NCBI GenBank assembly: GCA_002269645.1
Contig: NIVC01000136.1
Coordinates: forward strand, 186,001-250,000
Direction: 5' to 3'
Length of the DNA stretch: 64,000 nucleotides
Source: Macrostomum lignano
Lineage: Eukaryota
Both the position numbers and the translations under genes were made by a program. Shown one piece after another: positions 11,814-59,185 of this stretch; position 1 is the first letter of the stretch; each line of letters begins with the position of its first letter. Below the pieces are notes generated by a model. It had not been told where the DNA came from and made no database searches. It saw only the letters and a program-made list of their open reading frames with translations.

Positions 11814-11814
11814 C

Positions 11815-11980: not shown

Positions 11981-12049
11981 CCGACTTCGAAACACCCAAG
12001 CCAACCGCCCTTTTTCGAGAACGACTCTTCGGTCAGCTACGAGATCAGC

Positions 12050-13225
12050 ATGTTCAACGAGCGAGACGAGAGCCGGAGTAGCAGCCGGCTGGATCAGCAC
12101 ATCAGCAGTTCGAGGCCTGCGGCAGCAGACGCCGCCGCGGCAGCAGCAACGACCGGTGACTTCTGTCAGAGGCCCGCGCCGAGGCGAAGTGTACGAAGCG
12201 AGGTGTCCGAGGACCCGCCAGATGAGCTTCTGCGAGGCTTGGACGACCTTGGCCAGACCGTCAGACCCTTGGACCTGAGGACCATGATGGCAGCTCTGCA
12301 GCAGCAAATAGAGCGACCGGTGAGTAAACAGATTAAGATTGTTAAATTTACTCCAAGTCAGGACATTCATGTCTGGCTTGCCGCGTTCGAGCAGCGTTGC
12401 GAGATGGAGCGAGTCGTCGACCCGTTCGAGATGAAGCAGCACCTCATCGCGAGTCTAGATCTGTCTACTGCGTATCCAGCCCTGCTCAGCATGCATCTGC
12501 CAAGGTTCGCCAGCTACGAGGAGGTTAAACAGCGTTTAATCGAGCGATTTGCGCGCCACGGTGGCGCTGATGAGTATCGAGAGCTTCTAAGGAGGCGTCA
12601 GCAAGGCAAGAATGAGTCAGCAGAAGAGTACGCTGATGCCCTGCGCACCTTGGGAGAGCGAGCGTACCCTCGAATGCACCCTGAGGATCGAGAGCGGGAG
12701 CTGGCTGATCAGTTCCTAGCTGGCATCAGGACGACACCAGATCTGCGCGAGCGGCTCTATTGGGTCCGCCCGAACAATCTGCTGGCCGCTATTCGAGAAC
12801 TCCATCGTCTGGAAGGCGCCAAAGAACTGGCGCAGCGCTCTGCTCAACCCCCGGTTCGCATGCTGAACGGGGAGCGCGACGGTGACCCGACGCCCGACGC
12901 CACCGCTCAAGCTCTCCTAGCTCTGACTGATCTGCTAGAGAAACAGCAGCGACTGCTAGACAACCTGGTGCAGCGTGACCAGCAGCAGAAGACAAGTCCG
13001 CCTGCGAAAGCCATGATCTGCTATGGCTGCGGTCAGCCTGGTCATCGCAATGCACAGTGCCCGTTACGCCAGAACCAGGGAAACGGCGAGACGGAGAGCG
13101 CCCACGGCAACGCCCTCCGCAGAGCCCAAGCCCCGGCTACTTGGCAGACTCCGAACGCTCACCAGAAGAAGAGGATGTCGGCTGCGCAGGCGCCAATGCC
13201 CAGCCCGACAGTCGCGCATCAGTAA
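12050..13225 (+). CDS. gag: Gypsy Gag with C-terminal zinc knuckle
   Basis: CYGCGQPGHRNAQC knuckle; RRQQGKNESAEEYADALR capsid-like motif; first ATG after the PBS array (frame open from 11777). Confidence 0.9.
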   Translation: MFNERDESRSSSRLDQHISSSRPAAADAAAAAATTGDFCQRPAPRRSVRSEVSEDPPDELLRGLDDLGQTVRPLDLRTMMAALQQQIERPVSKQIKIVKFTPSQDIHVWLAAFEQRCEMERVVDPFEMKQHLIASLDLSTAYPALLSMHLPRFASYEEVKQRLIERFARHGGADEYRELLRRRQQGKNESAEEYADALRTLGERAYPRMHPEDRERELADQFLAGIRTTPDLRERLYWVRPNNLLAAIRELHRLEGAKELAQRSAQPPVRMLNGERDGDPTPDATAQALLALTDLLEKQQRLLDNLVQRDQQQKTSPPAKAMICYGCGQPGHRNAQCPLRQNQGNGETESAHGNALRRAQAPATWQTPNAHQKKRMSAAQAPMPSPTVAHQ

Positions 13226-15744
13226 GTGAGGCTGAGTGCGGAGGTTTCGTGGACACCTCCGATGATCAAAAAATCCATGCGCGTGAGGCTGATCCGTACG
13301 TCACCGGCCGATTGGCGGGCCGAGAAGTCCCTTTCCTACTAGACAGCGGCAGTCGGAAAAACTTCCTTGGAGCGTCGACCTGGGCCAATGTTAGACGTCG
13401 GATGCCTCGTTGTATTATATCGCATGCTATCCCGGATTGCGTGACCATGTACGACGGTACGCAGCTACCCCTTGCTTGTAAGGTGATCATTCCGGTGGAG
13501 TTCGGTGATGTCGTCGCGGACACCGAATTCCTGGTCACGGTCACCGATTGTGAAAATTTGCTTGGTATTAATTTCATGCGTGAGCACTGCCAGAACTTGG
13601 ACTTTGCTCAAGGAATGCTAAAGTTCAACAATGGCGCGTGCATTCCCGTTCGCTATTCGCGCCGTGAGCTTCAATCATGCCGGGTGTACACCTCCGAGAA
13701 GTGCACTCTGCCGCCCAGAAGTTCAGCGCTGTTGGCCGTCCAGTTGGATGTCGGCCACCCCGAGAATCGAGGATCGCCATCAATCGTCGAGCTGGTGAAG
13801 TCGAGACTGCACCCCAGCTGCAACACTCTGGAAGCAGCTCCAGCTCTGATGACTATGCCTGAAGGTCGAGGCTACATCGAGGTCGTCAACACTGCAGACT
13901 GCGAGGTGTTCCTGCAGTCGGGCATCCGCGTTGGTGTTGCGACACCACTTAGAACAGCCGACCTGATGTACCTGGAAGAGACGCCGGAACCTGAAGTGCG
14001 ACATTTGCCAAGGAGCCCTGAAGAGTCCAGCACAGCTTGGCTAGAAGAAGTTGAGATCAACAGCGAACTGTCTGAAGACCAACGACAGAGAGTGCGAGAT
14101 CTACTAGTTGAGTGTCAAGCAGCCTTCTCGAAGCACCTGCTAGACGCTGGCCTGACACACCTGGTGACCCACGATATCATCCTGAAGGATCGGACACCAG
14201 TCGCGCTACCACCGCGCAGGATCCCGCCTCATCTGAAGGACAAGTTAGACGCCCTGCTAGACAAGATGCTGACGAAGCACATCATTCGCCCAGCGTATTC
14301 TAGTTACAACTCGCCAATGCTGATAGTGCCCAAGAAGGACGGCAACATCCGGCTGGTGCACGACTTCAGAGCTCTCAACGACAAATGCGTGTACCACCCG
14401 TACCCGCTGCCGCACATTCAGGAGACTTTCGCGAAGCTGCGTGGTGCCCAGTGGTCCTCTAGCTTGGATCTCGCTCAAGGATTCTGGCAGATCCCGCTGC
14501 GCGACTGCGATCAGCACCTGACGGCGTTCTCTGTGATTGACCGCGGACAATTCTGTTTCAATGTTCTACCGATGGGTCTCCACGATAGTCCAGGCAGCTT
14601 TCAGCGTTGCATCAATAAGCTCCTGGACGGCCTGACGCCAAAGACTGCGCTTGGCTACATGGATGACATCGTGGTGCACTCAGTGACCTTCGAGGAGCAG
14701 CCGGACAACCTGCGGACTGTACTCCAGCGGATTATCGCAGCCAACCTCAAGATCAAGCCGAAGAAGTGTCATTTGTTCCTCAAGGAGCTGCATTATTTAG
14801 GTCACGTCGTGACTCCCGACGGCCTGAAGACCTGTGAGGACAAGATTGCACAAATCCGTGATTGGCCCGTGCCACAGTCCGTAACTCAACTGAGACAATT
14901 CCTAGGCCTCGCCAATTACTACCATAAGTTTGTCAACGGCTACGCTGGATATGCTGCGCCACTGCATGCCCTGACTCGAAAGGACATCGGCAGCCTGCGG
15001 CAGCATTGGACTGATGAGCACCAGGTAGCGTTCGACACGTTGAAGAAGAAGTTGTGTTCGACTGAAGTTCTCGCTCTGCCTGAGTTTAACTCAGATCCTG
15101 ATGTGAAGTTTGTCCTCGACACTGATGCCTCAGACATTCGCATAGGCGCTTGCCTTGGACAACGGCAATCCGACGGCGTCGAGCGCCCAATTGCATTCTT
15201 TAGCCGGAAACTTCGTGATCCTGAGAAGCGCTACACGGTTACGAAGAAAGAGCTGCTTGCAATCGTGGACGCCATGCGACATTTCCGTCATTATGTAATT
15301 GGCAAGAAGTTTGAAGTTCGTTCTGACCATCGAGCCTTGCTGTGGCTGCTGAACCAGACGCAGGTCACAGGCATCTTGGGCCGTTGGATTGAGCGACTGA
15401 GCGAGTTCCGCTTCCAGCTTCACCATCGCAAAGGCAAGGACCACGCCAACGCTGACGCCCTGTCAAGACGCCCGGAGACACCACCGGTTGACTTTGAGCA
15501 CGGCCGACTGCTTGAGCATCCCGATTCTGCAGCCCGACACGATGATGACACCAGCTTGGAGCCGGACTTGGAAGGCCACTGCAAGACCAGCCCTTTCGAA
15601 GAAGGTCCGCACTCGCAACAAGGAGGCCAAGACTGCCCTGGCCGAAGCCCTGAAGGCCACCGCGCCAGCAGCCCTTCAGCACGACGACCATCGCCGCAGT
15701 CAATGCCCGGAGACCGGTTTGGACACCAACCCGGAGGCCACTGA
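13057..15744 (+). CDS. pol: Gypsy Pol: protease, reverse transcriptase, RNase H
   Basis: FLLDSGS protease; GYMDDIV RT; LDTDASD/ELLAIV/SDH RNase H; HANADALSR. Confidence 0.95.
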   Translation: MPVTPEPGKRRDGERPRQRPPQSPSPGYLADSERSPEEEDVGCAGANAQPDSRASVSEAECGGFVDTSDDQKIHAREADPYVTGRLAGREVPFLLDSGSRKNFLGASTWANVRRRMPRCIISHAIPDCVTMYDGTQLPLACKVIIPVEFGDVVADTEFLVTVTDCENLLGINFMREHCQNLDFAQGMLKFNNGACIPVRYSRRELQSCRVYTSEKCTLPPRSSALLAVQLDVGHPENRGSPSIVELVKSRLHPSCNTLEAAPALMTMPEGRGYIEVVNTADCEVFLQSGIRVGVATPLRTADLMYLEETPEPEVRHLPRSPEESSTAWLEEVEINSELSEDQRQRVRDLLVECQAAFSKHLLDAGLTHLVTHDIILKDRTPVALPPRRIPPHLKDKLDALLDKMLTKHIIRPAYSSYNSPMLIVPKKDGNIRLVHDFRALNDKCVYHPYPLPHIQETFAKLRGAQWSSSLDLAQGFWQIPLRDCDQHLTAFSVIDRGQFCFNVLPMGLHDSPGSFQRCINKLLDGLTPKTALGYMDDIVVHSVTFEEQPDNLRTVLQRIIAANLKIKPKKCHLFLKELHYLGHVVTPDGLKTCEDKIAQIRDWPVPQSVTQLRQFLGLANYYHKFVNGYAGYAAPLHALTRKDIGSLRQHWTDEHQVAFDTLKKKLCSTEVLALPEFNSDPDVKFVLDTDASDIRIGACLGQRQSDGVERPIAFFSRKLRDPEKRYTVTKKELLAIVDAMRHFRHYVIGKKFEVRSDHRALLWLLNQTQVTGILGRWIERLSEFRFQLHHRKGKDHANADALSRRPETPPVDFEHGRLLEHPDSAARHDDDTSLEPDLEGHCKTSPFEEGPHSQQGGQDCPGRSPEGHRASSPSARRPSPQSMPGDRFGHQPGGH
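13078..13119 (+). promoter_or_regulatory. Predicted -1 programmed ribosomal frameshift signal
   Basis: In-frame slippery heptamer G GGA AAC, 7-nt spacer, stem cggagagcg/cgccctccg (8 of 9 pairs); pol is in the -1 frame. Confidence 0.75.
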
Positions 15745-17240
15745 CACCTCAGCCCTCCGCAGCGATGCCAACGCCGACTGCCGATGCTTGGAGATTCGCC
15801 CAGACGAAGCCTCGGAGGCTCCTGCTGACGTAGACCTCCTTGACGATGTCCAAGACTGCGGGTCTCGGAACCTGGAGACGCCCATGGACTACGACTCAGA
15901 GGCCACTGAACAAGCAGCCCTACTGATGACAGCCCACAACGCGAATCCAGACCAGCAATGTAAGTTCAACTCCCCGGAGTTTTGCGCTGAGAGTTCTCGC
16001 CGTGTTGACAGAGGCCAGACTCTCGCGACGGCTGCAAGGTCAACGCTCTGTCCCCCGAGCCGACAGACAGCTGCTCATCGCCTGTGCGGAAAGTCGAGTC
16101 CCCCTTTGCGACACCGCCCAGTGCTGGAGAAGACTCACCCAATGACGACGATGATCGAGCCGACGGCTACGGCTGCCTGCGACGAGGCGTGCTTCACGTG
16201 TTGCGTCTCGCCCTACAGCCAAGAGTCGCCTGGGCTGTGCAGTGGAGGCAAGTGCACTGCTCCAGCTGCAGAAATTCCTGTCAAGAGAGCGATGATGAGA
16301 ACTTCGAAACGAGATCAGCGATCGTACGCCGACGTTGTGAGACAAAGTCCCTCGGAGCGACCTAATCCTGACGCCGACAAGACGGAGTCGTGTCATCAAC
16401 TGCGAGCCAAAGAAGCGGAGACTGCGGGAGTCATGAACCCTCAGCCATGCCGCGCCGTGCTCACTGATTTTCTGAGGTTGCCGATGACGCGGCAACAGTT
16501 TGTCGACGCGCAGCACGCCGACAGAGCTATCAGCTACGTGCTCAATCTGGTTAAGAACGAAGCCCCGAAGCAAGAGTTCGATGCCCGATTGCGCCTGTCG
16601 AAGGAGCAGCGGAACCTGCTCGGTTATTTTGAGAATTTGCGAGTGGAGGACGACTTGTTGATGATCGACCTAACTGACGGTCAGCAATCCCCGAAGGTTA
16701 TCCTGCCCGAAGCCCTCGAGGCCCAGGTGCTCCAGGAGCTCCACAGTTCGCCACTGTGTGGTCACCTAGGCCAGACAAAAACGCTGAAACGACTGCGAGA
16801 AAGATTCTGGCGGCCCGGATTAGCCCGTGTCACCGAGAATTTTATCAGCAGATGCCGTGCCTGTCTTGAAAGCAAATCGCGAAGGCGAGACAAAGTTCCA
16901 GTTCAAAGCTTCCCAGTCTGCGAAGTACTAGGAAGAGTACACTGCGATGTAGTAGGCCCTATTGCCCAGAAGAGCAAGAGCGGGAACCGCTACATATAAC
17001 GTCGAAGTACCCGTTCGCCTACCCGATGAGGAACCAAAAAGCCAAGACTATCATCAAGATCCTGCAGGAGCGCCTCATCCCAGATTTCGGCGTACCCTGC
17101 TGGATCCACATGGACCAAGGCACCAACTTCACCGGCTCCGCCTTCAAGAAGTTTTGCAACCTGTTTGGCATCCGACATACTACAACAACACCGTACAACC
17201 CAGCTTCCAACGGTCAAGTCGAGAACCTCAACTCTTTAGT
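15488..17240 (+). pseudogene. pol: Long spacer plus disrupted, truncated integrase
   Basis: HSSPLCGH...CRAC zinc finger; HCDVVGP, MDQGTNF, GQVENLN triad; frameshift after RH; small deletion at ~17000; ends abruptly in AT-rich DNA. Confidence 0.88.
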
Positions 17241-24144: not shown

Positions 24145-25422
24145 TCACTTGCCCTTGTCAATGAGCACCCTGCCAAACACTGACTTGGCCTTGGTGGCAT
24201 TCCCTGGCGACAGGCGGCTGAGCAGCCGCTGGCAGGACTCCAACTGGCCGTTCAGCGCCACGTTCTGGCGCACCTTCTCGGCCATGTCGGCCTTCCAGTC
24301 CTCCAGCTCGGCCTTCATGCACACGTTCTGCGTAACGATCTCCCGTATTCGAGTCGCCTCGTCCTCGTGACGCCGCTCCAGCTTGGCCACGGACTCCTTC
24401 AGTCGGCTGCACTGGCGGCAGTCCCGACAGGTTGCAGCCGAAGCCGGCTCCGCATCGTCAGGTATCTCCTCCGGCTCGCCGTCGACCTCAAAGCTCTCGT
24501 CCGCTGCCCTGGCATCGGCGGCTGCTCGCTCCGCGTCTGAGGGAACCTCACCGCGGAGCAGCGACAGCTCTTCGAAGATCTGCGACGCTGCCGAGTTCAG
24601 CAGGTCGTCAGCGTAAAGACGGCTGTGCAGCCGCTCCACGGCTGACCGAAGCTCCCGAGTCGCCGTTCGCAGCTGCTGATTCTCCAGAGTGAGCTGCGCG
24701 CCCAGCTGCCTGTACTGGCTGTTCTCCCGCATCAGTTCCGTCATGCGCGACTGCAGCTCCGCATTCTCGCGCACCAGCTCGCGATCAAAGCCGGCAGATG
24801 AGTCGAGAAAATCGGCAGCGCTGCCGCTCACATTGAAGTCGTCGTCGTCGTCGTCCTCCTCCTCGTCATTGTCGCCTTCCGGTTCATCGGCCGCCTCTTG
24901 GTCCTCTTCATCGTCGTCCAGGCTCACTTTCTCGTCGAACTCGCGATTCTTCATTTTCTCAGCGTGCAGCTGCTGCTCCAGGCAGTGGATGGCGGCCGAC
25001 TTCTCCGTGACAGCCTCCTGCAAATTGGAGACCAGCAGCTGCTGCTCCGGTCTGCCAGAAATAGCGCCACTGTTGTGGCTGGAGCTCAGCGAGGCTTTGG
25101 CGCTGTGCCTGGAGCTGCTGGACCGCTGCTGCAGGCGGATGCTTCGAAGCGACAGTTCACGAATTTTCAGCTCCTCGGCCTGGGTGTGCAGCCGCTCCCT
25201 CAGCCGGCTGTTCTCCTCCTCGAGCGAGGCTATCTGAGTGGCCTGCTGCACCGACTGCTCCTTCAGCGTGTCCAACTGCTCAGAGTAGAACTCCTCGTAA
25301 GTTGTCGAGATGTCGCCCAGACTCTCAACCAGGAAGACGCAGAGCTTGGCCATGGATTTGAAGTTGGCCTCGCTGCCGGAGGTCATGACTCGCTCGACCA
25401 CCGATGTGGCGACCCAGTCGGC
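24145..25422 (-). CDS. Large terminal exon of a coiled-coil protein with an acidic insert
   Basis: 1278-nt open frame; acceptor ctcactgacAG|GCC at 25422; heptad-rich E/Q/L/R sequence; the track ORF start is a GTG, not ATG. Confidence 0.8.
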   Translation of the reverse strand, partial: ADWVATSVVERVMTSGSEANFKSMAKLCVFLVESLGDISTTYEEFYSEQLDTLKEQSVQQATQIASLEEENSRLRERLHTQAEELKIRELSLRSIRLQQRSSSSRHSAKASLSSSHNSGAISGRPEQQLLVSNLQEAVTEKSAAIHCLEQQLHAEKMKNREFDEKVSLDDDEEDQEAADEPEGDNDEEEDDDDDDFNVSGSAADFLDSSAGFDRELVRENAELQSRMTELMRENSQYRQLGAQLTLENQQLRTATRELRSAVERLHSRLYADDLLNSAASQIFEELSLLRGEVPSDAERAAADARAADESFEVDGEPEEIPDDAEPASAATCRDCRQCSRLKESVAKLERRHEDEATRIREIVTQNVCMKAELEDWKADMAEKVRQNVALNGQLESCQRLLSRLSPGNATKAKSVFGRVLIDKGK

Positions 25423-25447
25423 CTGTCAGTGAGGAATGACCATTTTG

Positions 25448-25448
25448 C

Positions 25449-25537
<89 letters not shown>

Positions 25538-25538
25538 G

Positions 25539-25590
<52 letters not shown>

Positions 25591-25622
25591 ACGAGCTGAA
25601 GAACTAACTAACAGCTCGTAAC
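25448..25622. repeat. (AACT)n microsatellite
   Basis: Direct reading. Confidence 0.97.
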
Positions 25623-25873
25623 TAACCTCCAGAGCTTAGAAGTCGTGAAATATTCGTATTATTATAAATACAACATCCTCTTAGAAGTACATGGCATTTC
25701 AGTGTCCAGGCACAAACCTGAGAGCCTGGCGGATATTCCTCAACTGAACGACGCAAGTAGCGTTGTAGGTGAACTTCGATCTCTTCAACTAGGGCTGTTA
25801 ATTCCTCTGAAACGACCTCGGCAATCTGCTCCTCTTGCTGTGTCTGCTTCTGGTTCTCTGATGAGTTATCCAT
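25622..25873 (-). CDS. Small hypothetical protein (MDNSSENQKQ..., 83 aa)
   Basis: aagATGg start, helical E/Q-rich sequence; no homology recognised. Confidence 0.35.
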   Translation of the reverse strand: MDNSSENQKQTQQEEQIAEVVSEELTALVEEIEVHLQRYLRRSVEEYPPGSQVCAWTLKCHVLLRGCCIYNNTNISRLLSSGG

Positions 25874-26725
25874 CTTGGCCAAGAGTTTGTTGCTGATTGA
25901 AGCAGACGCTGAGCTAGGAAGTCTATTCTGCTTGCAGCTACGAACAATGCGAGGCTTGTAACTAACTATTATAACTCGCTTGTGGCCGTGGTGAGGAACT
26001 GGTCTAGGAATTTCACGGCATCGGGAGGGGTGGGGTAAATAGCTGGCAGCAAGGCTGTACAATAGAAAAATAGGGGAGAGAAGCGACGGGAAGGTCGGTT
26101 GGGTCTTGGAGAGGAGGCCTGAGTCTGAGCTCAGGTAAGGTTGGAAAGAGGAAACAGTCCTAGGGTTTGTACTCAGGAGCTCAATTGGGCTATAGACTGA
26201 GTACATTAAATGCTTTGAATTCCTTTCTTTCTATTAGGCTTTCTAATTTTTTTACACTATGCTCATTTCTGACAATAAAAACAACACGTTGAAGGTCCGT
26301 TAAATTAAACCACGTGATGACTTACAAATCTGCGAAATTGTCTCCAAGATTTTGTAAATGGTCTGATTACGAGTTGCAAAAAGCTTGTATGCAAAAATTA
26401 AATGCTGCGACCTGCGGTCACGCGCGCAGAAATTCAATTTTTACTGCGCGCGGAGACAAAGCCGACAGAATCAAAAAAGGGGGGGGCGCACTTGATCCGA
26501 AAACTTCGAACATAATCCTCCTAAATCCATCCATATTATCCCTGACAGAATCAGAGCATACGAGCTAACAGGTGTCCTACATCATCCACTGACATCCACC
26601 CATAGCATTTTCGAAACAATCAGAAGATAATCTGCATTCTTCTCCCCACATTCAATTCGCAACGCGAAACCAGATCCTCAGCGCAGGGTGCTCATCCTCC
26701 GAAAAAAACTAAATTCTTAATAAAA

Positions 26726-26965
26726 ATGCTTCCAGTTGTCTCTCCAGGTTCTTATTACAAAACGCACGAGCCTAATTACAAGAGTAAATACCAATGCAAA
26801 CTAGAATGCAGTGAGTACATGAGAAAATGTTGGCCCGACCACACAATAAATGTCCCTAATATTAATCTAGCTCTCCAAAGCCACTGGTTTCTTAAGTATG
26901 GAGTAACCTACGTAAAAGATTACGACAGCTACTATAACTTTGCAGAAATCATTAGGCAATTGTAA
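26726..26965 (+). CDS. Small hypothetical protein (79 aa), convergent with the penton gene
   Basis: ATG after aataaaa; stop 7 nt from the penton stop; Y/C/K-rich. Confidence 0.45.
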   Translation: MLPVVSPGSYYKTHEPNYKSKYQCKLECSEYMRKCWPDHTINVPNINLALQSHWFLKYGVTYVKDYDSYYNFAEIIRQL

Positions 26966-26972
26966 TTTCTTC

Positions 26973-27832
26973 TCACATTCTCTCAATGATCAACGTCAAT
27001 ACAAACCCTTCACCGTTGAATTCAACACCCATCCAATCTTCAGTCTCAAACTGTAACGCAATCTCGTGAATCTCCTTATTACTCAATACAACTCTTTTCA
27101 CTGGATTTGGTTTCTCTACCAGCATCTGTCCTCCAGCTACAGAGTTGGAGATGTTGTAAAAAATATTCGTTCGCTTTCCCTTAAATACCCAATCAAGACT
27201 GAGATTACTTCTGATTAGAATATTCAAACCCTTTACAATGTCTGCAATATTGGGTGCTAAGAACAAACCGCTTACACTTTCCCGGGCCATGCTAACGGCC
27301 CCCGACGCTTGAGTGGCGGTCCGCGCCGTGGATTCTGCCTTATAAACTTTCTTCTCGAATCCCAGTTCCCTATACCAAGTTTCATCTTTAAACTCAACCT
27401 CCGCATCTTTGTGAACTTGCATGACCACTCTCATTACAGTGAGATCATAGGCTAGTTTGACAGGGAACAGTTCTGGCTGAATCAGATCAGGTGTCTCAAA
27501 ATGGCCTCTTTTAGTAAAGACGTTTTCCAGAAAGTAATTGTAGGTATCCACACTTTGCGTGCTCACAGGGAATACCACAGGTTCTGCTGCCGCACCTTTC
27601 CATTTGTAATAAAACTTATTACTTGCTGCTGTCCCATTGGGAACGTTTGACCAACCAGTGAAGTCGTTGTTAAGATAGACATGGTAATTAGCACCTGGAT
27701 CCAGGTGAATCTCCTGCTCTAATTTTTGAACAAACATCCCGTTTGAGTCATTAATTCGCCCAGTTATTGGAATAGGAATGCTCTCCTTGGAGTGAGAAAG
27801 AATATTATTTAGCTTTCAGCAATCGCTTCCAT
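26973..27832 (-). CDS. Polinton/Maverick minor capsid protein (penton, PX-like), 1-nt frameshift near the N-terminus
   Basis: N-term MEAIAE(K)LNNILSHSKESIPIPITG..FVQKL..EIHLDP..NYHVYL..WSNVPN; C-term NILIRSNL..G..TNIFY..SVAGGQMLVEKP..IHEIALQF..GVEFNGEGFVLTLII fit the PX pattern as I recall it. Confidence 0.8.
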
Positions 27833-27899
27833 TTTTTCACCCATAAAAAATTATTTAAACTTTACTGCATGTCCCAGAAGCCCCTTCATGCATTCTACT

Positions 27900-28831
27900 A
27901 GCGTTGGCTCTGCTGCTCTGCTCGCTGGCAGCCGGCCAGGTCTCCCAGTGCGCTCCCGCTGACTCTCCAAGGCTCCGCTTCGTGGCGCAGCTCAGCGTGA
28001 ACGGCTGCGCGCTGTTCGTGCACGACACGGGAGCGAGCGACGGTCCGCACTTGGCAGTCGAGCCGCTCATGTGCGTGACGGACAGCCTGAAAGGCATTGT
28101 TCCCCGATTCGACTTCATCACCCAGCAGCTGTACTTCAGCGTTCCGATATTGATGAAGGATGCTGGGATGCTTGCAGAGGCTCAGCGTCAACTGCGGCAT
28201 CTGTCACCGAGGTCTGTGAGCTTCGCCACGGTGGCAACGTTTAAAAGTTGACAAATGTGACTTTTAATGTGTCACATCTGTTGCACGTCTTATCAGGGAC
28301 GATGTCTCTTCTGAAAGACATGGCATTTCTGGCTCAATCGTCAACCAAACAGTATTCGCGTACCAAAATTTCGAGATTTTGGATGCATTCGAAATACTTG
28401 TTTGTTATTTTAAATGCGTGCTCATTTGTATTTTTGTTCTTTTCATTCCTTCGCAGCCCTGTGCCGTTTAAAAAAGTAATTGACGACTTCCAGGACTGCT
28501 GTGCTGGCGGGGCCCGCTGACCTGTGGCGACACGTGCAGTGGCGGGTGACATCGCTGGTTGCTGAGCAGTGCATCTCTAAGTCCAGCCAAATCACTTCAT
28601 CATGGAGAATGAAACCGCCTGTAAGCGACAGCTGCTTCAGTCTGAAGTCCTGCGCCAGGCTGCAATGTGCCTAAGCTCAACGCACAGCGAACTCTTCCAG
28701 TGCGGTTCAACTGCAGCCAGACGGTCGCTGCTTCCTGAAGATTCAGCAGCGACTTACTGGCAGAGTGAGTTTTCAGCGAAACTGGACTGAGTACGAGACT
28801 GGGTTCGGTGACGGCACTGACTTCTGGATAG
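27900..28831 (+). pseudogene. Copy A of the repeat-domain/FReD gene: partial exon 1 (27900-~28235) and exon 2 (28494-28831)
   Basis: Near-identical to B/C; lacks promoter and ATG; exon 1 cut after FATV; TAA at 28672; exon 3 absent. Confidence 0.9.
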
Positions 28832-29885
28832 GTGAGCGTGCGTCAGGAACTGAAGCAGGTCTTATCAACTGCCATAGGAGAGTCATTTAGGCCGTACAAT
28901 TAATAACGTTCGTTGGTTGGTGGCTCTGTAAATTTTAGCTAAACTTTTTTTTCTTACATCTTTTCCAGCTTTTCGAAACTTGTATGCCTTCATCTTAAAA
29001 AATTGTATTTATATTTTATATGTGTAAGTATTCCTCTGTAGGCTCTGCGCTGAATTGGATGTCATGATACAAACAAGTAATTTTTCGTTCGACGCTCGTA
29101 TCCAACAAACAACAGCAACAACAACAAAGTACGCAGCCCAGCATGCAAGTCACAGTTAGAGCAGGACATGTCAGATGGCGCGTCCCAAATCTTAAGAGCA
29201 GACGAAGTTCGCCCCGTTGGCAGTGTCGGGCTCCCAGCGTCGCATAGTATACATTAAATTATTAAGCTGAATAAATGAAACTTTATTGAAATAAAGTCAT
29301 GACAGAACTTTATTGTGGCACAAAAGCACGAAAAACATTACAGGCTAGAAACCTGCCTTATATTGAAACTATTTGTTATCGATTTACTGACCCACCGCAA
29401 CCCCCAACCCGCGCTAGCAAAGTACATGCAGCGAGAGAGAGAGTCACCAAAACAACCTAACCCAACACCCGCCCCGGCGCGCACGCAGGCCAAGCTACCA
29501 CATCCCTCCATGCCAAGACAAAAGCAACAGAACTTGCAAAAAAAGAAAAACCCTCCACCAAAGAAAACAATCAGTCACTGTCAGATAAGTTCACTCGTAG
29601 GTCAGTCGCCCTTGTGGTCCTCTCTGAACGCCGCAGCATCTGCGGCGGCGGCAGCGGCGGCGACGGCGGTGGCGGCGGCGGCGGCGGTCGTGGCGCTTCA
29701 GACGTTGTCACCGACGGAGACAGCTGCCGTGGCCCCGCCCCGCCTGACTGGCCCAATCCTGCCGCTTGCTCAGGTGGGATGATCGCCGGCACCAGGTGGT
29801 TGGCATGCCGCCGCACGATACGCTCGTCGGGCAGGCGGCACTCGTAGGACAGCGGCCCGGTCCGCCGGCTCACGGAGGCCGGTGC

Positions 29886-31073
29886 CTACTTCTCCGGACC
29901 ATTGAAGTCACGCACCAGGACACCGTCGTCTTCTTCGAAGTTGCGATCCCTGGCTCGCAGTTCGTGGTACTCCTTTTGCGAGTCCTGACTGCGCCTGACT
30001 GTAGCAGAGACATCGGGCCGCACAATGTCTAGAAGCGTCCGCAGCTGCCTGCCCATCATCAGCTGGCAGGGTGGAGCACCGGTTGTGCTGTGCGGAGTGA
30101 CCCGGTAGGTCAGCAGGAACCGAGCTAGCCGAAACTGCAGGGACGCCGGCCGCCCCTTCGCCAGGGCCGCCTTTACCGTCTGGACCACTCGCTCGGCCAA
30201 ACCATTGGACGATGGATGATATGGAGCCACTTTGATGTGCCGGATGCCGTTACTGGCCAAGAAGTTGCTCATCTCTTGGCTCACGAAATTCGGACCGTTG
30301 TCACTCACTACCACCTCTGGCAATCCCAGCTGACTGAAAGTCCTTCTCAGCCGATCGATTGTGGCAGCACTGGTGGCGGACTGGCAAATGTGGACTTCAA
30401 TCCATTTCGAATGAGCGTCCACCAGTACTAACAGCATTTTTCCCTCGACTGGTCCAGCGTAGTCCATATGGATCCGGGACCACGGTTTGTCCGGCCACGG
30501 CCACGGCTGCAGGAGAGCAGGCGGCGGGCAGTTCTGATGACGCTGGCACTCGCCACAGTTCTGTGACAGCTGCTCGATGTCCCGGTCCAATCCCGGCCAC
30601 CAGAAATATCCTCGGGCCAGGGGCTTCATCCTTGAAGCTCCTTGGTGGCTCTGATGTAGACAGTCGAGCAGCGCTTGTCGTCCCTGAACCGGCACAATCA
30701 CACGGTTGCCCCACAGCAGGCAGCCGTCCTCCAGGCTCAGTTCTGCAGCCTTGACCGCGTACCGCTGCAGTTCCGCATCCAGCCGAGGACGCTCCGGCCA
30801 TCCACTCTGTACGAGCCGCAGCACTCGACTGAGCAGCGGGTCCCGCCTTGTCCAGCCGCGAACCTGAGCAGCCGTCACGGATCGCTCATTGAGCGCATCG
30901 ATGAGCAGCACTACCTCAGCCGGTGAGGGCGTCTCCACTGACTTCGTCGGCAGCGGCAGCCGACTCAGAGCGTCAGCCCGCAGTAGCGAAGTTCCCTTGC
31001 GACACTGCAGTCGATACGAGTAGTTCGAAAGCAGCAGAGCCCAGCATTGGATCCTTGCTGAAGCCAGTGGTGG
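29886..31073 (-). pseudogene. pol: RNase H end and integrase of the second Gypsy element
   Basis: PLASARIQCWALLL; HQSH..CGEC; HMDYAGP, SDNGPNF, GLAERVV. Confidence 0.93.
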
Positions 31074-32119
31074 TGATGTGTTCCTTATTACCCGACTTTT
31101 GGTAATCAAAGAACACTCACTTCTAGCTCAGTAGCTAGGCAACCCAGTACGTCAACAGAAGGTATTCAATTACCTTGAGTCCTTAACTGAGAGCTCTCGT
31201 CAATACTCCTTGTTCGTTGATCTCGTTATCAGTAGCGTTCCTGTCCTTCAGGAATTCCGGGCGCCGGTCAACAGTTGATCTGGTCCGCTCTTGCAATTGT
31301 CTCCTTGACTTCTTGCAGGCCGGTTATCTGTAGTTCGGACCAATCGGAAGCTTCCAAGTTAACAATGGGGATCCCTGCGCCAAACTGCGGTTTAATATAA
31401 GCCTACTCCTTCTAGCAGTGCCTCTATGCACTCTAGGTATAGCTCCGGAAACCACTGATAGTCTTCTAAGATCTATCAGGGGCAGTCCTTCTGGAGACTG
31501 CAACCAGTAGAGTCTAGACAGACTCAGGAGTCTCAACAGACTCAAACTAAACTCCAACGAGACGTCTCAAAACACAGGCGCAAATGAGTAAGGCTTACCG
31601 CAAGAACTCGACGAGTCTTCTGTAGGAAGTCCTGTAGTGGCTTCCTCTTCGGAGCTCTTCTCCTTCCGGAGGAATTGTGGCTCCGGGTCCGTTCCGGACC
31701 ACTTGTATTTATAGGCGTTCAGACCTCTCTCGAGGTCGTACATCACTGTCTTCGCAAATGTCAAAGGGTCACGATTCGGTGGCTGTCAAGCATGACAGGG
31801 TAGAAAGTTGCGCAACTAGTCTACTGTAAAAGCGCATGATTGGTTACCGTAGCTGGTAGACTTTGATTGGTTCATCCGGGTGCAACCCGAGTGCAAACCA
31901 AATGATGACTTGAAGGTGGGGTTTGAATTGACAGTTGTTGGTCGCACCTGATTGGGTGATTTCTAAAATTAGCATGCTCGAGATTTCTCTCTTTCTATTG
32001 GTTAATTTGAATATATGTATGGTTCAGCGCATATCCTTATACATGCTCCTCAAATTACTACTATTTAAGTAGTACGTTAACAATTTTATGTCTTCTTACG
32101 GGAGGCAGAACACTCTACA
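31074..32119 (-). mobile_element. Solo LTR (1046 bp) inserted in pol
   Basis: TG...CA ends; exact 4-bp TSD GTGG (31070-73, 32120-23); removal restores KAIPPLASAR; minus-strand CCAAT boxes then TATAAATA (31706-13). Confidence 0.9.
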
Positions 32120-34472
32120 GTGGAATGGCCTTGCTCTCGTGTAGCTGGCCCAGTAGCGGCTTGTGATCACTCTTGAGCTCGAAGGTTTTGCCATAGAGGT
32201 AGGCGTGGAAGTGCTTGATCCCAAAAATGATCGCCAGGGCTTCTTTCTCTGTCTGCGAATAGTTCCTCTCGGCGTCGGCGAGCGATCGGGAAGCAAAGGC
32301 AATCGGCCTTTCAAGGCCATCAATCCGGTGGCAGATAACGGCCCCGACCCCGTATGGCGAACTATCGCACTCCAGAATCATCTCCTTTTTGACGGCGAAA
32401 TGGACAAGCGCCTGCGGGCTCAGTAGCAGCTCCTTGCTGCGCCGGAAAGCATCGGACTGTGCTTCGCCCCATCGCCAGACAGTTCCTTTCTCGAGAAGCC
32501 GGTGCAGAGGAGCCAGAACGCTGGACAGGTTCGGCAGAAATCGGCCGTAATAGTTGAGGAGGCCCAAGAAACTCCGCAACTGCGTGACGTCCTTTGGCAT
32601 CGGCGCGTCAACGATCGCGTTGACTTTGTCACTCATCGGGTGCAGGCCCTGGACGTCAATCCGATGCCCCAAATAGGTAACCGAATTCTCCATGAAGCGG
32701 CACTTGTCAAGCCGGCACTTCAGCCCAGCATCCTTCAGGCGCTGCAGGACGATCTCCAGATTCTCGAGGTGCTCAGCATCATCGGCGCCGGTCACCAGCA
32801 CGTGATCAATGAAGTTTGCCGTATGCTTTGCGCCTTGCAGCAGGCCGTCCATGGTCCTCTGGAAGATTCCAACTGCTGGTGAGATTCCAAACGGTAGTCT
32901 CGTATACCTCAGCAAACCCTTCGAGGTGTTGATGGTGCACAGGCGCTGGGACTCTTCATCGAGCGGAAGCTGCATGTATGCCTGGCTGAGGTCCAGCTTG
33001 GTGAACTTTTGGCCGCCGGTGAGCTTGGCGAACAACTCCTCAATCCTTGGCAGCGGGTAGCAGTCCATCTCCACGTCCTGGTTTACCGTGTACTTGAAAT
33101 CTGCGCAGATTGTGATGGAGCCGTCCGACTTCAGCACCGGCACGATTGGGGACGCATACTCCGAATCGGAGACCGGCCGCAGAATGCCCTGCTGGATCTT
33201 CCGCTCGAGCTGCTCTTCCACCTTGGACTTCAAAGCGAAGGGCACCTGCCGCGCCTTCATGAACTTGGGTCGCGCCCCAGGCTTCACTCGCAGTTTCAGA
33301 GGTTCATCCGTGTAGCAGCCGAGGCCACTCGAGAAAACGGGGCTGAACCTCTCTAGCAACTTCTGCACTTGCTGATCCTTTGGAGCCGACGCTTCGGGCA
33401 GCTGCTTGACGCTCTCCCAATTTAACGGCAGCACAGCCAGCCAGTTCCTACCGATGAGGCTGGAACTGGATCCAGATACCACTAGAAGAGGAAGAAGCTG
33501 CTTGGCTTTACCTGGAATCTCTGCAGACACGCTGATCTGACCAAGCACGCTGACTGGCTGTCCGCAGTAGTTCCGCAGCCGAATCGGGGTCCGCTCGAGC
33601 TCAGGAGCCCCGCCCAGCAGATCGTGATAGGCTCTAGCCGATATCAGCGATACAGCCGCGCCCGTGTCGATCTCCATCTGGCAGGACACTCCGTTGAGCA
33701 GGACCATGGTGATGTACGGCGGCACTTTGGCAGCTGCACTGGGCAAGGTGTTCAGGGAGCCGCAGTCTTGGCTTTCCTCCTCCACGGCGGCGACTTGCGA
33801 CCGCGGCTCAGCTCCAGCCGAATCCGCGCCTCCTAGACAGGCTGCAGTGGTGTGCCCCATCTTGCCGCACTTGAAACAGGCCTTCTTCATGAATGGGCAC
33901 TTCGCCGCCAGGTGTTTTGCAGACAGGCACCTGTAGCACCTTTTCGCTGGTCGCTGAGTCGCTACCACATTGGTCTGGCCGACTTGGTCTACCGATGCTG
34001 CCGAGGCGTGGCGGCTTGCGGAGTTCCTGCGGACTAGTCCTTGACCAAGTTGCAGCTATTGGTTGCCAGCTCCACCGCCTGGGAGATCGCCAGTGCTCTG
34101 TCCAGGTCCAACTCTGTCTCGGACAGGAGTCTGCGCTGTATGTGATCATCTTGGATTCCAAGCACCAGACGATCTCTCAGCATGGTGCTCAAGCTGTTTC
34201 CGAAGTTGCAGTGGACAGCCAAACGCCGCAGTGCCGCCAAGAAGTCGGCCACGGACTTTGAGCTCTCTCGAACGCGCTGGTAGAAGTGGAACCTTTGCAC
34301 GATCTCTGACGGCTTTGGGTCCCAGTGATCGTCAAGCTTTTTGCAGATGTTAGCGAAGGAAGCCTCTGAAGGCTTAACTGGGGCCAGAAGACTGGTGACA
34401 AGCCTATAGGTGTCCTTGCCGCACAAGCTGAGGAATACCGCTCGCTTCTTCTCTTCGCTTTCGATTTCGTTT
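32120..34472 (-). pseudogene. pol: gag-PR-RT-RH of the second Gypsy element
   Basis: CYRCLSAKHLAAKC / CFKCGKMGHTTAAC; EIDTGAA; RT motif degraded to FIDH; frameshift near 34030; gag starts at (A)NEIESEEKKRAVFLSLCG. Confidence 0.93.
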
Positions 34473-34518
34473 TACCAAGCGAGCAACACCAAGCGAGCAA
34501 CTTTACCTGAAAAACAGC

Positions 34519-36122
34519 ATGGCTTCCAAATGCTGTGTGTTATTGACTGCAATTCTGGATACGCGAATGCAGCACCGACAGGGAAGAAAATTAGCTTCTA
34601 TTCCTTTCCAAAAGACACTTCATTGCTGCAGTGACGGCTACATGCCATTCCGAACAAAAGTCAAAGTGCATCAGCATTTTAAATGTTCCAACACCTATCT
34701 TGGTAAGCAGTTAAAAAAGCCTGAATGCCCGCCGATTACAAGAGAACTCTGGCAACTTGAACACCTACTAGCATTCGCCGAGTTTATAAAAAAAAACTGG
34801 CGCTCAGGTGCAGCAGGAAAGAACTGCTTGACGAGTGAAACAGTCGGTAGCTTCATTTAGACGTGTTCTGCGATTCCGAAACTTTGCTTAAGACTACTTG
34901 CTACGGTGCACTTTCAGAATGCTTTGTTTGGAAAGTTTTCTTCGGATCCCATCCAGAGGCAGTTCGGAAGGTACTGTGACGATTATCCGGCAGACTCGAA
35001 ATTAATTGATAAAGACAAACACGACAGAGGCTAATTTTGTAGCGGTAGCACTTGATGATAGTAGTGAATGATGCGGGCGGTGGCCGCAGTACGTACCAGT
35101 ATTTATTGTAACCGTATGAGTGGATAGTTAGGGCTCGTTATTATTAATTCCGTCTGGGTAGCTAATAGAGATAGGTCAGAGTACTTGCTGAATCAGTAAG
35201 AAAAGCACTGGGCGGCTACGCAACAATAAGATAGATGATAGGCGATAGATCGAGTCGATGAGCCTGAGGCAATGGCGACGATGTGATGGCAGTGATCGTG
35301 TGGTGGCGGTACTCGTAGCGAGAACCCGTTGCAGACGGTAGAGGTGGCGTGGTCGAGAATTGACGGTGGCAGTGGCGTGACTGAGACTTGGCAGAGGCGT
35401 GGTTTAGAGCCGTGGCGAAGCGAGGCGGAGAGAGAAGGCGGGTAAACAAGCCAACAATGGGTTGAAGGAACGAAGGGCAGCCGGGGGCGGTCTAACCCCG
35501 AGTGCCCCCGCCAGACAGGACTGATAAAGAGCGGGCTGGGTGTGGGTGCGCGAGGAGAACTTAATTTCAGGCTAACATAATTTATGCGCGGCTTTTCTAT
35601 TGGCCGGCGAGAAAAACAGGAATTATCGATCGCATACTGTACTTAGGCTTTACAAACGTAAGCAAGTTGTTTAAAATTCTTTGGACGCTACTTTAAGCAG
35701 CCGTGAGAGTACGAGACCATTAAATTAGCAATATTATAGATTGGTACTGTATGCTAAAACGGCCCTTGACGGGGCCACCTAAGCTGACAACGTCACACCA
35801 CCGACAGATGTCAGGTGGTCAATACTACATCAACTCGAAAAAAATTATTCAGTCTAAAAATAAGATTAGAGTGATGTCGCTTGCATCCATTTCTTATATC
35901 CATTGCCTGGCCTTGCGACATAAAGACTCAGGCTGCCTGAATGTCATGTTTTACATCTCAGGATATCTGTCAAAGTCCTCTGGTAAACGCTGTCATCATA
36001 AGTATCGACAGTTTCTGGTCAGCGAAAATAACTTTCCAGCATTGGAAATGCCAACTGAAAATTTAGACCTGAGGCCGGTAAACTCCGGCCGCGAACCTCT
36101 ATCCGGCCCTCGGGTCCTTTGA
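34519..36122 (+). pseudogene. Decayed, internally deleted THAP-domain P-superfamily transposase
   Basis: MASKCC(V)IDCNSGY..ISFYSFPKD..LLQ*RLHAIP THAP; GKFSSDPIQRQFGRY | RQMSGGQYYI; FYISGYL C-terminal region. Confidence 0.75.
34975..35797. mobile_element. 823-bp insertion with TGTGACG...CGTCACA ends (probable solo LTR)
   Basis: Splits FGRY|RQMSGG; 7-bp inverted termini; 4-bp flanks gtac/ccac are only a partial TSD. Confidence 0.7.
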
Positions 36123-36619: not shown

Positions 36620-37079
36620 AAATGCCCAAGAAAACACTGCGTATGCTGTGGATTGACATAATCTGAAAACACAAACTTAAACACAGTTCGCACTGAAGAC
36701 TGCAAAATCAAAGCCCGAAATTCCGAAATGACATCCAGCACAAACAGAATTTCTTGCAGCAAGGCAGGTAAAAATGAGGCGCTGCATGGCGCAAAGGTTG
36801 CGAGTGACGCATGCAGAACCTCGGGATTCCAGACACTGTCTGGCAGAGAGTGCATTTAGTCACGGGATTCTGGCCAACCGAATCCCCAGCTGAGGCAAAC
36901 AGTCTGATGTAAATGGCAAACCGCGTTACGCGTCTGGAATGCGAAGTGCAGCCTGCAGTCACGTGAAATTTATGCCATGGGCAGGGAATGCTTCTTCTGT
37001 ATATAAATGCAGCCATTTTACAGAATGCAGCTGCAATCCTCAGCTTACCGATACAACAACGAAAGGTGAACTTGACTCG
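36620..37079 (+). promoter_or_regulatory. Conserved upstream/promoter region of copy B with TATA box at 37000-37007
   Basis: High identity to 55160-55671; TATATAAA about 80 nt before the ATG. Confidence 0.7.
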
Positions 37080-38219
37080 ATGCAGCTCTTTCAGTTGCGA
37101 GTTTCTGCAGCGTTGGCTCTGCTGCTCTGCTCGCTGGCAGCCGGCCGCCAGGTCTCCCAGTGCGCTCCCGCTGACTCTCCGCGGCTCCGCTTCGTGGCGC
37201 AGCTCAGCGTGAACGGCTGCGCGCTGTTCGTGCACGACACGGGAGAAAGACGGTCCGCACTTGGCAGTCGAGCCGCTCATGTGCGTGACGGACAGCCTGA
37301 GAGGCATTGTTCCCCGATTCGACTTCATCACACAGCAGCTGTACTTCAGCGTCCCTGTATTGATGAAGGATTCTGGAATGCTCGCAGAGGCTCAGCGTCA
37401 ACTACGGCATCTGTCACCGAGGTCTGTGAGCTTCGCCACGGTGACCAACATCAGCGTCTCAGCCGACAGCCGCTCATCGGTTCGGGTTTTGGGCTTCCCG
37501 TGGACTCCAAATGAGTCAGTAGCCACTCTGAGACTCGGCTTCGGAGAGAAGATCACATATGAAGCCCTAAATCTACGAGCAAGCATGCTGGGACTGGCGA
37601 ATATCGACCAATTGACCAAAGTTTTTCTGTTACCAAACACTCATATAAGCAGACGAAATAAAATTGAAAATTCAACAATCGAGACTCTAAAAAATGTAAA
37701 ACTCTCAGCTACTCTTCTGTCGAATGGCTGTTTCCATGAGGTTCAGAGCCGCATCATGCTGCAAAACGACAGCTTCATCGAAGTCGGCTTGTACAGGAAA
37801 AAATTCTTACCCGTGTGCCAACAGCTGCGGTTCAGTCGGTACGTCAAACTCGAGAACTGCTCTGTCCGAGTGCACCAGAGACTCGACATCAAGGGCCACT
37901 TCCTCATTGAGCCTCTGCTGTGCCACAACATCTCCAGCTTGAGCAGCGAGTCAGTCAGGTATGACTACAGCCGAGACATGCACTACCTGAAGCTGGATCT
38001 AGTGCTGCAAGATGAGGCCACACGCGATTCTGTGAGGACTCAGTTGGCCGACTTGTCGCCTCGCTCGGTCGACTTCATGCGGCTGTGGACTGCTGAGAGA
38101 TCAGTGAGCTCTTCGTTGAGTGCTCGGTTCGAGGTCGGTCCGCTGATGGCGTCGACAGACTGGAGGTCCGCTCAGCTGCGGCTGCTCTGCGGAAACTGGA
38201 CGGAGTGCCGCGATCTCAG
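37080..38219 (+). pseudogene. Copy B exon 1: signal peptide + two-repeat domain, 2-nt frameshift at ~37245
   Basis: MQLFQLRVSAALALLLCSLAAG; ggagaaagacgg vs ggagcgagcgacgg in C; donor ctcAG|GTtggc. Confidence 0.8.
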
Positions 38220-38610
38220 GTTGGCTGACATTTTCTAAGACATGTGGCAGAAGGTCTGACAATTCGTTCACCGTAATCAAAAACTTTAGTGCTGCTTTTG
38301 AGCTGCTCTTTTATGGACTGCTTCTTACAGCTTTAGGGAGACAAAAATACTTTTTTAGCATGAGTTTGGAAGCAGAGGATATTTGATTAGGTAAGTTTTA
38401 GCTGGCTCGAATTCCTGACGTAAATATCGCATAAGCACACATTGCACAGTTGTAAAGTTTATACGAGCGTAAAATAATTGAATGTCTGCGGCATCACTAC
38501 ATTCTAATATCATATACCAGGCATTATTGGCTTTAAAAACTTGCTCTGACTTTTTCTGTTTCATTCCTTCGTAGCACAATGCCGTTAAAAAAGTAATTGA
38601 CGACTTCCAG

Positions 38611-38948
38611 GGCTGCTGTGCTGGCGGAGCCCGCTGACCTGTGGCGACACGTGCAGTGGCGGGTGACGTCGCTGGTTGCTGAGCAGTGCCTTTCCAAGTA
38701 CAGCCAAATCACTTCATCATGGAGAATGAAAGCGCTTGTAAGCGAGAGCTGCTACAGTCTGAAGTCCTGCGCCAGGCTGCAATGCGCCTCTGCTCAACGC
38801 ACAGCGAACTCTTCCAGTGCGGTTCAACTGCAGCCAGACGGTCGCTGCTTCCTGAAGATTCAGCAGCGACTTACTGGCAGAGTGAGTTTCCAACGAAACT
38901 GGACTGAGTACGAGACTGGGTTCGGTGACGGCACTGACTTCTGGATCG
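38611..38948 (+). CDS. Copy B exon 2: linker and FReD N-terminal part
   Basis: ttccAG|G acceptor; FLKIQQRLTGRVSFQRNWTEYETGFGDGTDFWIG; G|GTGAG donor. Confidence 0.88.
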
Positions 38949-39549
38949 GTGAGCGGCAGTTTTGAGTCAACTAATGTTGTGTGACGAGAGAGGTAGCAGA
39001 TTTTGTGAATCTTATATTGAAATGCTAGTTGACTCATAAGCAATGACAAAAGATGAATTGAAAGGTTAGCTTCTCGGCTAATTAAAGGAATGTTAACTTT
39101 CAGTTGCGCCATGACTGCAATGCTCTACATTGACCTTTCCCGCCTTATTGGCGTTTCGGGCTCTCGGCTGGCTTCAGTGAGTCAGGAGGCTACTGTCATT
39201 ATTTTCAACGAGCTCACCAAAAGATATTGATGAGATTCTCTAGTCTCAGGAAGTTTGGGATAATTTGCTCTAGTCTGTCTTTTACACGGCCAGGACCCCT
39301 AATAGCAAAAATAGTGTGTTTCAGTTAGCAAAAAAGTTTATCCAGGAGTTGTCAATGAAAAGGATTTGGACTCTCCATCCAGACAACAAAATTTTCGAAA
39401 AATAGAAGTCCCAAAACTAATCTGACGCGAAAAGCAGTAGAAAGCAGTTTAGTCCATTACCAGCTGTTCGAACAAAAAACTTGGGCTTGCTGTGTTGGCC
39501 ATTACACTGCATTTGCTGAAATGAAGCAGCACCAGCCAGAGCAGCAACA

Positions 39550-41066
39550 AACTTCATTGTGCATTCCCAAGTTCGGCACTGTAGCACTCCTAGACTCCTA
39601 GGCATTACCCTGGACCGTACGCTCAGCTTTAACGCGCACGTCAACGACATCTGCAGCAGAGTCCTGTCCCGCTGCCGCATGCTGTCCTGCCTCGCGGCTC
39701 GGGACTGGGGTTGGCGCAAGGAGCGCCTTCGCGGCGTCTACCTGGCTATGCAGCAGAGCCTTCTTAACTACGCGGCCCCGGCTTGGCAACCTTGGCTTTC
39801 CAGCTCCTCCTTCGAACGCCTTGAGCGCGCGCAAAACCAGGCCCTCAGAATCGTCACGGGCTTGCACCGCTCGGCGCCGCTTGACGCTGTGCACCTGGAG
39901 GCCGGCATCGGCAGCTACAGGAACACCAGCGACCGCCTTTGCCTCATCGCCAGGGAACGCGCGCTCAGGCTGCCCAACGACCATCCTCGCGCCATCGCCC
40001 TCTCGGGCACCGTGCAACACCGGCTCGCCCGCAGTAGCTGGAGACTCCGCTCGGCTCAGCTCGCCAATGGCCTTGGCATTGATCTCACGCCGCGTTTGCC
40101 GCTCACACCGGCCTTTCCATGCCCCTGGCTGGACCAACATCTCCCGGCGATCCTAGCTGACAATCCTTTGCCTCCGGCCACCACGCCCCCGTTGGAGCGC
40201 TGTCTTGCCGCTCTTGACGTCATCCGGTCTCACCCGGCTGAGCTCGTCATATACTGCGACGGTTCGGCGGCCGGCGGCTCCGAGGCTGGCGGGGCGGCCG
40301 CTGTGGTCACCATCGGAGACCCGGCAGTCCCGACGACCGTAAAAGTCCGCACGGCCGCTGGCAGCCGCTACACCAGCTCCTTTGAAGAGGAACTCCGCGC
40401 TCTGGTCCTAGCGCTCGACTACCTCCGCTCGCACCCCACGCGCTCTGCCATCATCTGCTCTGACAGTCAGTCTCTTCTGCGCGCCCTTCAGCGTCCCTTC
40501 AGCCGCCTGGCCTCTTCTCTCCGCTTCCCGCACAACTGTCGCGCCCTCCTGTGGGTCCCGGGTCATGTCGGCATTCCGGGCAATGAACTCGCGGACCGCG
40601 CTGCTAACTCCGCTGCCGCCATCGCCGATGAAGCACCGCGCCCCAGCATCAGTTTTCCCACTGCCGCCTCGGTGATCCGCCGCACTCTGGCGGACAAGCC
40701 GGTCACCCACGCGAGATCTCGTCTCACCTACGCCTCCGCCGACGCCGACAAGGAACGTCGGCTTATTACTAACCGCAAAGACGCTCTCCTTCTTGCCCGG
40801 CTGCGCTCCGGCCACTCCAGCCTCTTCGGAGCCTTCCGCGCCCTCATGGACCCCACGGTGGATCCGACCTGCCAAAAGTGCTCCCTCGAACCAGACACCC
40901 TTGAGCACTGGATAGCGTGCCCTGCTCTCGAGGCCGCCCGCCGTCGCTTCATTGGAGCTCCGATCTCCCTCAGCAACTTGTCCGATTACCCTGATGGTTT
41001 GGTCGCGCTGGCCAGGTTCTGTATGGATCCTGGGCGCGTTTGGGCCATCTAACAACAACAACAACA
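39550..41066 (+). mobile_element. 5'-truncated non-LTR retrotransposon (Ingi/I-like; RT C-terminus, RNase H, CCHC-like end) in intron 2 of copy B
   Basis: RLLGITLDRTL..WGWRKERLR..; YCDGS, ICSDSQS, WVPGHVGIPGNELAD; (CAA)n tail; 12-bp TSD agagcagcaaca (39538-49, 41067-78). Confidence 0.9.
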
Positions 41067-48494: not shown

Positions 48495-48533
48495 ACTGTA
48501 TTAAATGCAATGTCTGGCTAGAGCCCAGGGCCA

Positions 48534-59047: not shown

Positions 59048-59185
59048 GCCGACTGCTTTACTCTGGTTGCTGTCATCTGTTTGCGCTTGTGCCAATCATG
59101 AGCAGCGCTCTCATGCCGACTGCTTTACCCTGGTTGCTGTCATCTGTTTGCGCTTGTGCCAATCATGAGCAGCGCTCTCACGCCG
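59048..59185. repeat. 67-bp tandem duplication (two copies)
   Basis: gccgactgcttta...gcagcgctctca repeated at 59048 and 59115. Confidence 0.85.

Follow-up and report, generated by a model that had tools for sequence, protein, structure and literature searches.

A probable internally deleted Polinton/Maverick copy with a broken penton gene in Macrostomum lignano

Anatomy of the locus and its host surroundings

The window, that is, the whole stretch of 64,000 nucleotides analysed here (contig C136), contains viral DNA only at 26464-27899, about 1.4 kb: similarity to a resident family of Polinton/Maverick elements covers 26464-27871, and is followed by an element terminus at 27870-27899. Within these limits lie a remnant of a terminal inverted repeat, a small element ORF, a penton gene and 30 bp of the opposite terminus. 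When aligned to a 16.1-kb copy of the family, 26464-27871 corresponds to positions ~14,470-15,940. The repeat remnant, on the penton side of the element (26464-26680), is built of 45-bp tandem units and aligns to 162-414 of the long-copy repeat. Next to it, on the plus strand, is a 79-aa ORF (26726-26965), which has the same length in 10 of 12 other copies examined and belongs to no known family: no Pfam match was found above the cut-off, and the protein atlas matches, all under 0.9, gave no usable name. Its end is 7 nt from the stop of the penton (minor capsid) pseudogene (26973-27832, minus strand), the tail-to-tail arrangement already noticed in an earlier, sequence-only reading of this DNA.

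Upstream of the penton, 27833-27871 (minus strand) comprises the spacer between the major-capsid and penton genes and the last few bases of the former, up to an internal deletion breakpoint, and matching to all long copies ends at 27871. The outermost 30 bp of the element's opposite terminus (27870-27899, minus strand), beginning with AGTAG and matching both ends of the long copies, are joined to the end of the major-capsid gene with a 2-nt microhomology, TG. Since similarity runs to 27871 and the opposite terminus follows at 27870-27899, some 14 kb have been lost from inside the element. Among core Polinton features, the remnant of the repeat is kept together with 30 bp of the opposite end, and pPolB, the rve integrase, the protease, the ATPase and the major capsid are deleted. 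The tblastn search of the 64-kb window (six queries plus pPolB) found homologues of none of these proteins, nor of PLA2, in agreement with the earlier reading that no other core Polinton gene is nearby. No RNA family was found by Rfam in six loci, which took in four left arms and one right arm of long copies as well as the locus itself.

The junction sequence occurs at three places in the genome, on contigs C136, C1165 and C2158, which also have in common the unique flank 25600-26460, low-copy host DNA with three full-length places, and long flanking synteny; they are copies of one locus, either alleles or duplicated chromosomes. In C1165 and C2158 the element, its left terminus shortened there by 3 nt, stands between two copies of its target-site duplication AGCGTT, a hexamer that the paralogous host sequences at 37102 and 55694 have once. 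The window has only the right copy (27900-27905, plus strand): a 413-bp deletion at 26462/26464 has removed the outer ~75 bp of the repeat and 338 bp of host flank, and with them the left copy. Both C1165 and C2158 retain the missing 413 bp, and the deletion junction is bridged without difference by short-read contigs from three runs. Neither the two termini nor the target-site duplication had been recognised in the sequence-only reading.

The sequence-only reading had placed the viral fragment at 25622-27850. The part from 26464 onward is viral, and extends to 27899, whereas 25622-26460 is host DNA; a 194-aa ORF (25622-26206), considered as a part of the element, was rejected on these grounds. 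On the minus strand, 25718-25873 is the likely first coding exon, of 52 codons, of a host coiled-coil gene at 24145-25422, with a GT donor at 25717, an AG acceptor at 25423 and matching phases, a putative splice as read from the sequence. The whole (24145-25873, minus strand) is probably a two-exon gene for an acidic coiled-coil protein of ~480 aa, with a (TAAC)n microsatellite in its intron. Its downstream exon is very conserved, with 0.2-0.3% difference between the locus copies, and the protein matches no Pfam family above the cut-off.

On the other side, 27900-28838 (plus strand) is an interrupted and internally deleted copy of a host array gene, from the signal-peptide region onward, with a fibrinogen-type exon near 28750-28830. 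Its identity to the paralogues at 37109-37443 and 55701-56034 is 95-97%, and it lacks ~1 kb of the paralogue's first exon; the paralogue exons match Fibrinogen_C at E 7e-21 and 9e-9, and the gene has 103 matches in the genome. The putative immune-gene array said to lie beside the capsid gene is therefore a fibrinogen-C-domain family, but the element interrupts one of its copies, the insertion point being the signal-peptide region, and is not merely adjacent to it. This tandem family of secreted proteins (27900-28838, 36894-39037 and 55486-60728) combines a ~370-aa N-terminal region, for which an atlas search gave no usable name, with the fibrinogen C domain; genome-wide, about 30 near-full first exons were seen, many of them with stops. 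In addition, frames of the Gypsy-type LTR retrotransposon kind and LINE frames with RNase H were recognised by eye from the ORF list (11768-16999, 29886-34055, 39520-41052, 44767-50126), and the three locus copies do not agree in the structure of the element at 29886-35680.

Identity of the penton

The minus-strand open frame at 26973-27815 has 280 aa from stop to stop and 254 aa from its first ATG. An ATG at 27832, out of frame with it, yields MEAIAE before the frame diverges, and alignment to other copies sets the break near 27812, after the sixth codon; the upstream extension of the 254-aa ORF across a one-nucleotide break, as originally suggested, is in agreement with this. A one-codon insertion is also found near 27671.

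The single ORF had no match in Pfam or among PDB sequences. Among 5.8 billion proteins 13 homologues were found, 12 of them at 53-60% identity and one at 28%, and a profile of these retrieved 1,393 cluster representatives at E <= 0.001. An alignment was then made of the window ORF and 127 near-full-length proteins, taken from the 13 homologues and 150 of the 1,393 representatives, with fragments and long outliers left out. The resulting 128-sequence profile had only weak matches in the PDB, to the EhV-201 penton (E 0.014) and the PBCV-1 penton (E 0.072); no Pfam family is common to the members of the alignment, and no relative was found among IMG/VR viral contigs.

The predicted model, with a mean pLDDT of 91, is mostly beta. 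Foldseek, the comparison proposed with the original identification, gave as best PDB match the mavirus penton (E 2.7e-9), followed by adenovirus penton bases and a Sputnik capsid chain (3j26_N), and among the matches in a viral library are minor capsids of virophages and giant viruses, adomavirus LO5, a MELD virus penton and adintovirus proteins. By VIA-align, the model superimposes on a PBCV-1 capsid chain with Z 13.2 (rmsd 7.3, 258 aligned) and on the mavirus penton with Z 12.5 (rmsd 7.9, 236 aligned); adenovirus and Sputnik follow at Z 11.9 and 11.8, and non-viral chains reach 6.4 or less. The ORF product is thus predicted to fold as a penton, a single jelly-roll minor capsid protein, which upholds its first identification. 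The pentons of mavirus (PDB 6G41), Sputnik and PBCV-1 and the adenovirus penton base likewise consist of a single jelly roll and an insertion domain, but at 8-11% sequence identity and a whole-chain rmsd of 7-9 Å they are structural kin only. In this virus lineage the penton is the capsomer of the five-fold vertex; because of its fold and of this established role, the protein would be the vertex protein of the parent's predicted virion.

The parent family

The claim that the fragment is isolated holds locally, but the genome has 564 candidate penton places, the best-scoring 138 of which are 89-100% identical. Among these, 123 have no internal stop (the best-scoring places being biased to open frames), as do 106 of the 117 best-scoring integrase places. 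The terminus pattern has 443 exact matches in the genome and none in the control, which would make about 220 elements, provided that both ends are present in most of them. The first 100 of these 443 matches include 27 inward-facing pairs, 15 spanning 14.7-16.7 kb and five under 9 kb.

Gene content was read from 20-30 kb around ten copies. Long copies encode a PLA2-like protein, an rve integrase, a pX-like protein, pPolB, an adenovirus-type protease and an A32 ATPase; a 428-aa double-jelly-roll-like gene stands directly upstream of the penton on the same strand, and the 79-aa ORF and the inverted repeat come after it. Pfam matches were obtained to rve (1e-8), Peptidase_C5 (1e-4) and Pox_A32 (4e-6), the latter two above the cut-off, and to PLA2 (6e-14), Adeno_PX (4e-7) and DNA_pol_B_2 (1e-6), the pPolB match to PF03175 (E 1e-6) being partial and no OTU domain being found by Pfam. 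The double-jelly-roll-like match of the major capsid (4e-6, 26.7 bits) is just under the cut-off of 27. A further parent ORF of 238 aa (5381-6094 of an extracted sequence), with a hydrophobic C-terminal part, may resemble the GasderminX gene of adintoviruses; Pfam gave no match of this type.

Both ends of the long copies start with AGTAG and pair over 260-600 bp, and 10 of the 13 long and three of the five short terminus pairs examined lie between exact 6-bp target duplications. In two long copies the inverted repeats show no mismatch over 516 and 599 bases, which marks the family as young: it is a young, abundant, high-copy family of ~16-kb elements. Moreover, its penton is under purifying selection, the family variants being 32 nonsynonymous to 34 synonymous (p = 3e-7 against neutrality, pooled pN/pS 0.28).

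In its length of ~16 kb, its inverted repeats of several hundred bp, AGT-type ends and 6-bp duplication, and in having pPolB, integrase, protease, ATPase and both capsid genes, major and minor, the parent is like known Polinton/Maverick elements, whereas in the window copy nothing is left but the penton, one small ORF and the ends. A Polinton/Maverick origin of the fragment, as first proposed, is borne out by this gene set together with its own termini and the 6-bp duplication, and what had been called an endogenous viral remnant is, more precisely, one internally deleted member of a high-copy family resident in this genome.

According to the available part of Starrett et al. (PMC8502044), the animal-associated adintoviruses have in common with the parent the adenain protease, FtsK/A32 ATPase and rve integrase, as well as hexon, penton, PLA2-like and pX-like genes; they differ in their single PLA2X gene, the parent's PLA2 and pX being two ORFs on either side of the integrase. 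The same part of that work describes for Alpha adintoviruses a pfam03175-type PolB with an N-terminal OTU domain, a PLA2X gene, and hexon and penton that cluster with Mayetiola cognates. On gene content, the parent is an adintovirus-type Polinton, which may be of Alpha or Beta class. No description of this family was found in literature searches by the presumed host genus, which is not named in one supplement of PMC8502044; Repbase or repeat libraries may already hold the family.

Other internally deleted copies, of 0.6-8.7 kb, were seen on C544, C124, C289, C33 and C105. The copy at C544:473028-476600 keeps major capsid and penton between both termini and has an exact 6-bp duplication; two short copies have only ~88 bp of paired terminus, with exact duplications, and two of 0.6-0.7 kb have their target hexamer in common, so that they probably represent one locus.

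Origin and fate of the window copy

The reading best supported by these data, to which a probability of about 90% is given, is that 26464-27899 is an internally deleted copy of the abundant ~16-kb Polinton/Maverick, in which the predicted penton is broken and is likely decaying without function. Insertion of the copy by the parent's rve integrase, as suggested by the 6-bp duplication, would have come first, the target being the signal-peptide region in one copy of a fibrinogen-domain gene. A deletion of ~14 kb with 2-nt microhomology, most likely by repair of a chromosomal break after insertion, would then have taken integrase, polymerase, protease, ATPase and major capsid. Finally, the three locus copies would have diverged and drifted, acquiring between them a frameshift, a nonsense stop, a 2.2-kb insertion and the 413-bp deletion, purifying selection having presumably acted on the penton only while the parent replicated.

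The step most open to discussion is the second one. Instead of deletion in place, a defective mini-genome could have arisen by template switch during protein-primed replication and been integrated in trans by a helper, in which case ~30 bp of one terminus would suffice for integration. Both termini and the 6-bp duplication are indeed kept around the deletion, the junction has a microhomology, and other short copies carry exact duplications, two with very short paired termini. Nevertheless, deletion in place gives the same anatomy, the junction is confined to one locus, with no sign of mobilisation of a short form, and the two smallest copies probably count as one. Such an origin is thus considered rather unlikely, microhomology-mediated repair after insertion being the simplest reading. 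Nothing points to a mobilised non-autonomous subfamily, as all three junction matches belong to this locus. Capture of the penton by another transposon was rejected, the ends being the Polinton's own.

As regards the penton, its retention by the host, whole, truncated or as a source of small RNAs, in a domesticated or antiviral role next to immune genes could be proposed on three grounds: the 254-aa frame is open from its internal ATG in the window, where the 79-aa ORF is open as well, the element is situated within a cluster of fibrinogen-domain genes, and the pairwise dN/dS values of the three locus copies are below 1 (0.54-0.87, on few changes, and so not cleanly 1). However, an intact penton frame is found in none of the three assembled locus copies, each disabled in a different way. 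In C1165 the 79-aa ORF is broken as well, and the penton has a nonsense stop at window position 27686; C2158, besides the frame break, has a 2.2-kb insertion inside the gene. The internal ATG would also skip the first predicted beta-strand (model residues 12-20), only ~40 bp of native upstream DNA are left, and more than a hundred open copies exist elsewhere, to which this one adds nothing unique. Furthermore, when the three locus copies were compared with 16 family copies, 23 distinct locus-private substitutions were counted, 17 nonsynonymous (one a stop) to 6 synonymous, against a neutral expectation of 78% nonsynonymous; at p = 0.62 these small numbers are compatible with neutrality and show no purifying selection after insertion, and their contrast with the family variants is borderline (Fisher p = 0.051). 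Substitution counts alone are suggestive, and it is the three independent lesions that carry the argument for decay. Retention by the host, which the sequence-only reading had left as a possibility, is not supported in view of these lesions and of private changes that fit neutral drift, and is regarded as extremely improbable. Between the locus contigs the penton differs by 1.4-3.2%, and the neighbouring host exon by 0.2-0.3% (3.2% and 0.16%, respectively, for the window against C1165).

If the break were a long-read homopolymer error, the window gene would be intact: the break falls within a short homopolymer run, and each of the 12 other copies aligned across it, from the family or the locus and with C1165 among them, reads differently at this point. 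Such an error is very unlikely, as C2158, which is another haplotype and carries an insertion of its own, shares both the break and the 7-codon frame, and one short-read contig crosses the break without a gap, a weak observation since it lies only 16 letters from the contig end. On both counts the break looks genomic. The penton of the window is broken, and likely without function. In runs presumed to be RNA, the contigs match sequence of the family and of the paralogues and are not assignable to this locus.

The window copy is, then, an ordinary genomic fossil of a known kind of element. It matters little in itself, as an insertion by which a fibrinogen-domain gene copy was knocked out or a spare one was hit; its value is as a pointer to the young, abundant parent family, which alone is of interest. 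Fragmented Maverick copies have been described in animal genomes (PMC8504770, in the part available), and most Polinton/Maverick copies in genomes are reported as degraded, with capsid genes under purifying selection (available parts of Barreat & Katzourakis, PMC8097293, and of Jeong et al., bioRxiv 10.1101/2023.08.22.554363). The vertebrate survey, as far as its accessible text goes, gives at most 38 intact copies in a genome (PMC8097293), to be set against ~220 elements by termini in this animal, with most best-scoring pentons and integrases free of stops and fully intact elements uncounted. Since Polinton particles had not been observed as of 2021, according to the same portion of PMC8097293, and many copies here have open frames, this animal would be a good place to look for natural ones. 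A speculative and quite unlikely extension is that the parent remains active as a Polinton virus that forms particles, with unusually many open-frame copies for an animal, and that its short copies are defective mini-genomes integrated in trans.

Two minor observations concern other mobile DNA in this family. The insertion in C2158 (6378-8561 of the extracted sequence) has TG...CA ends that match each other over a short length in inverted orientation, lies between the copies of a 5-bp target duplication, and has no ORF with a Pfam match; it is possibly a solo LTR or a non-autonomous DNA transposon. Finally, two of the ten copies examined (on C114 and C273) contain or adjoin a Polinton of another, unrelated family, which has a pPolB of its own and a TBP-like gene (Pfam TBP E 7e-21 and 1e-21); on C114 it splits the major-capsid gene, a case of Polinton-in-Polinton nesting.
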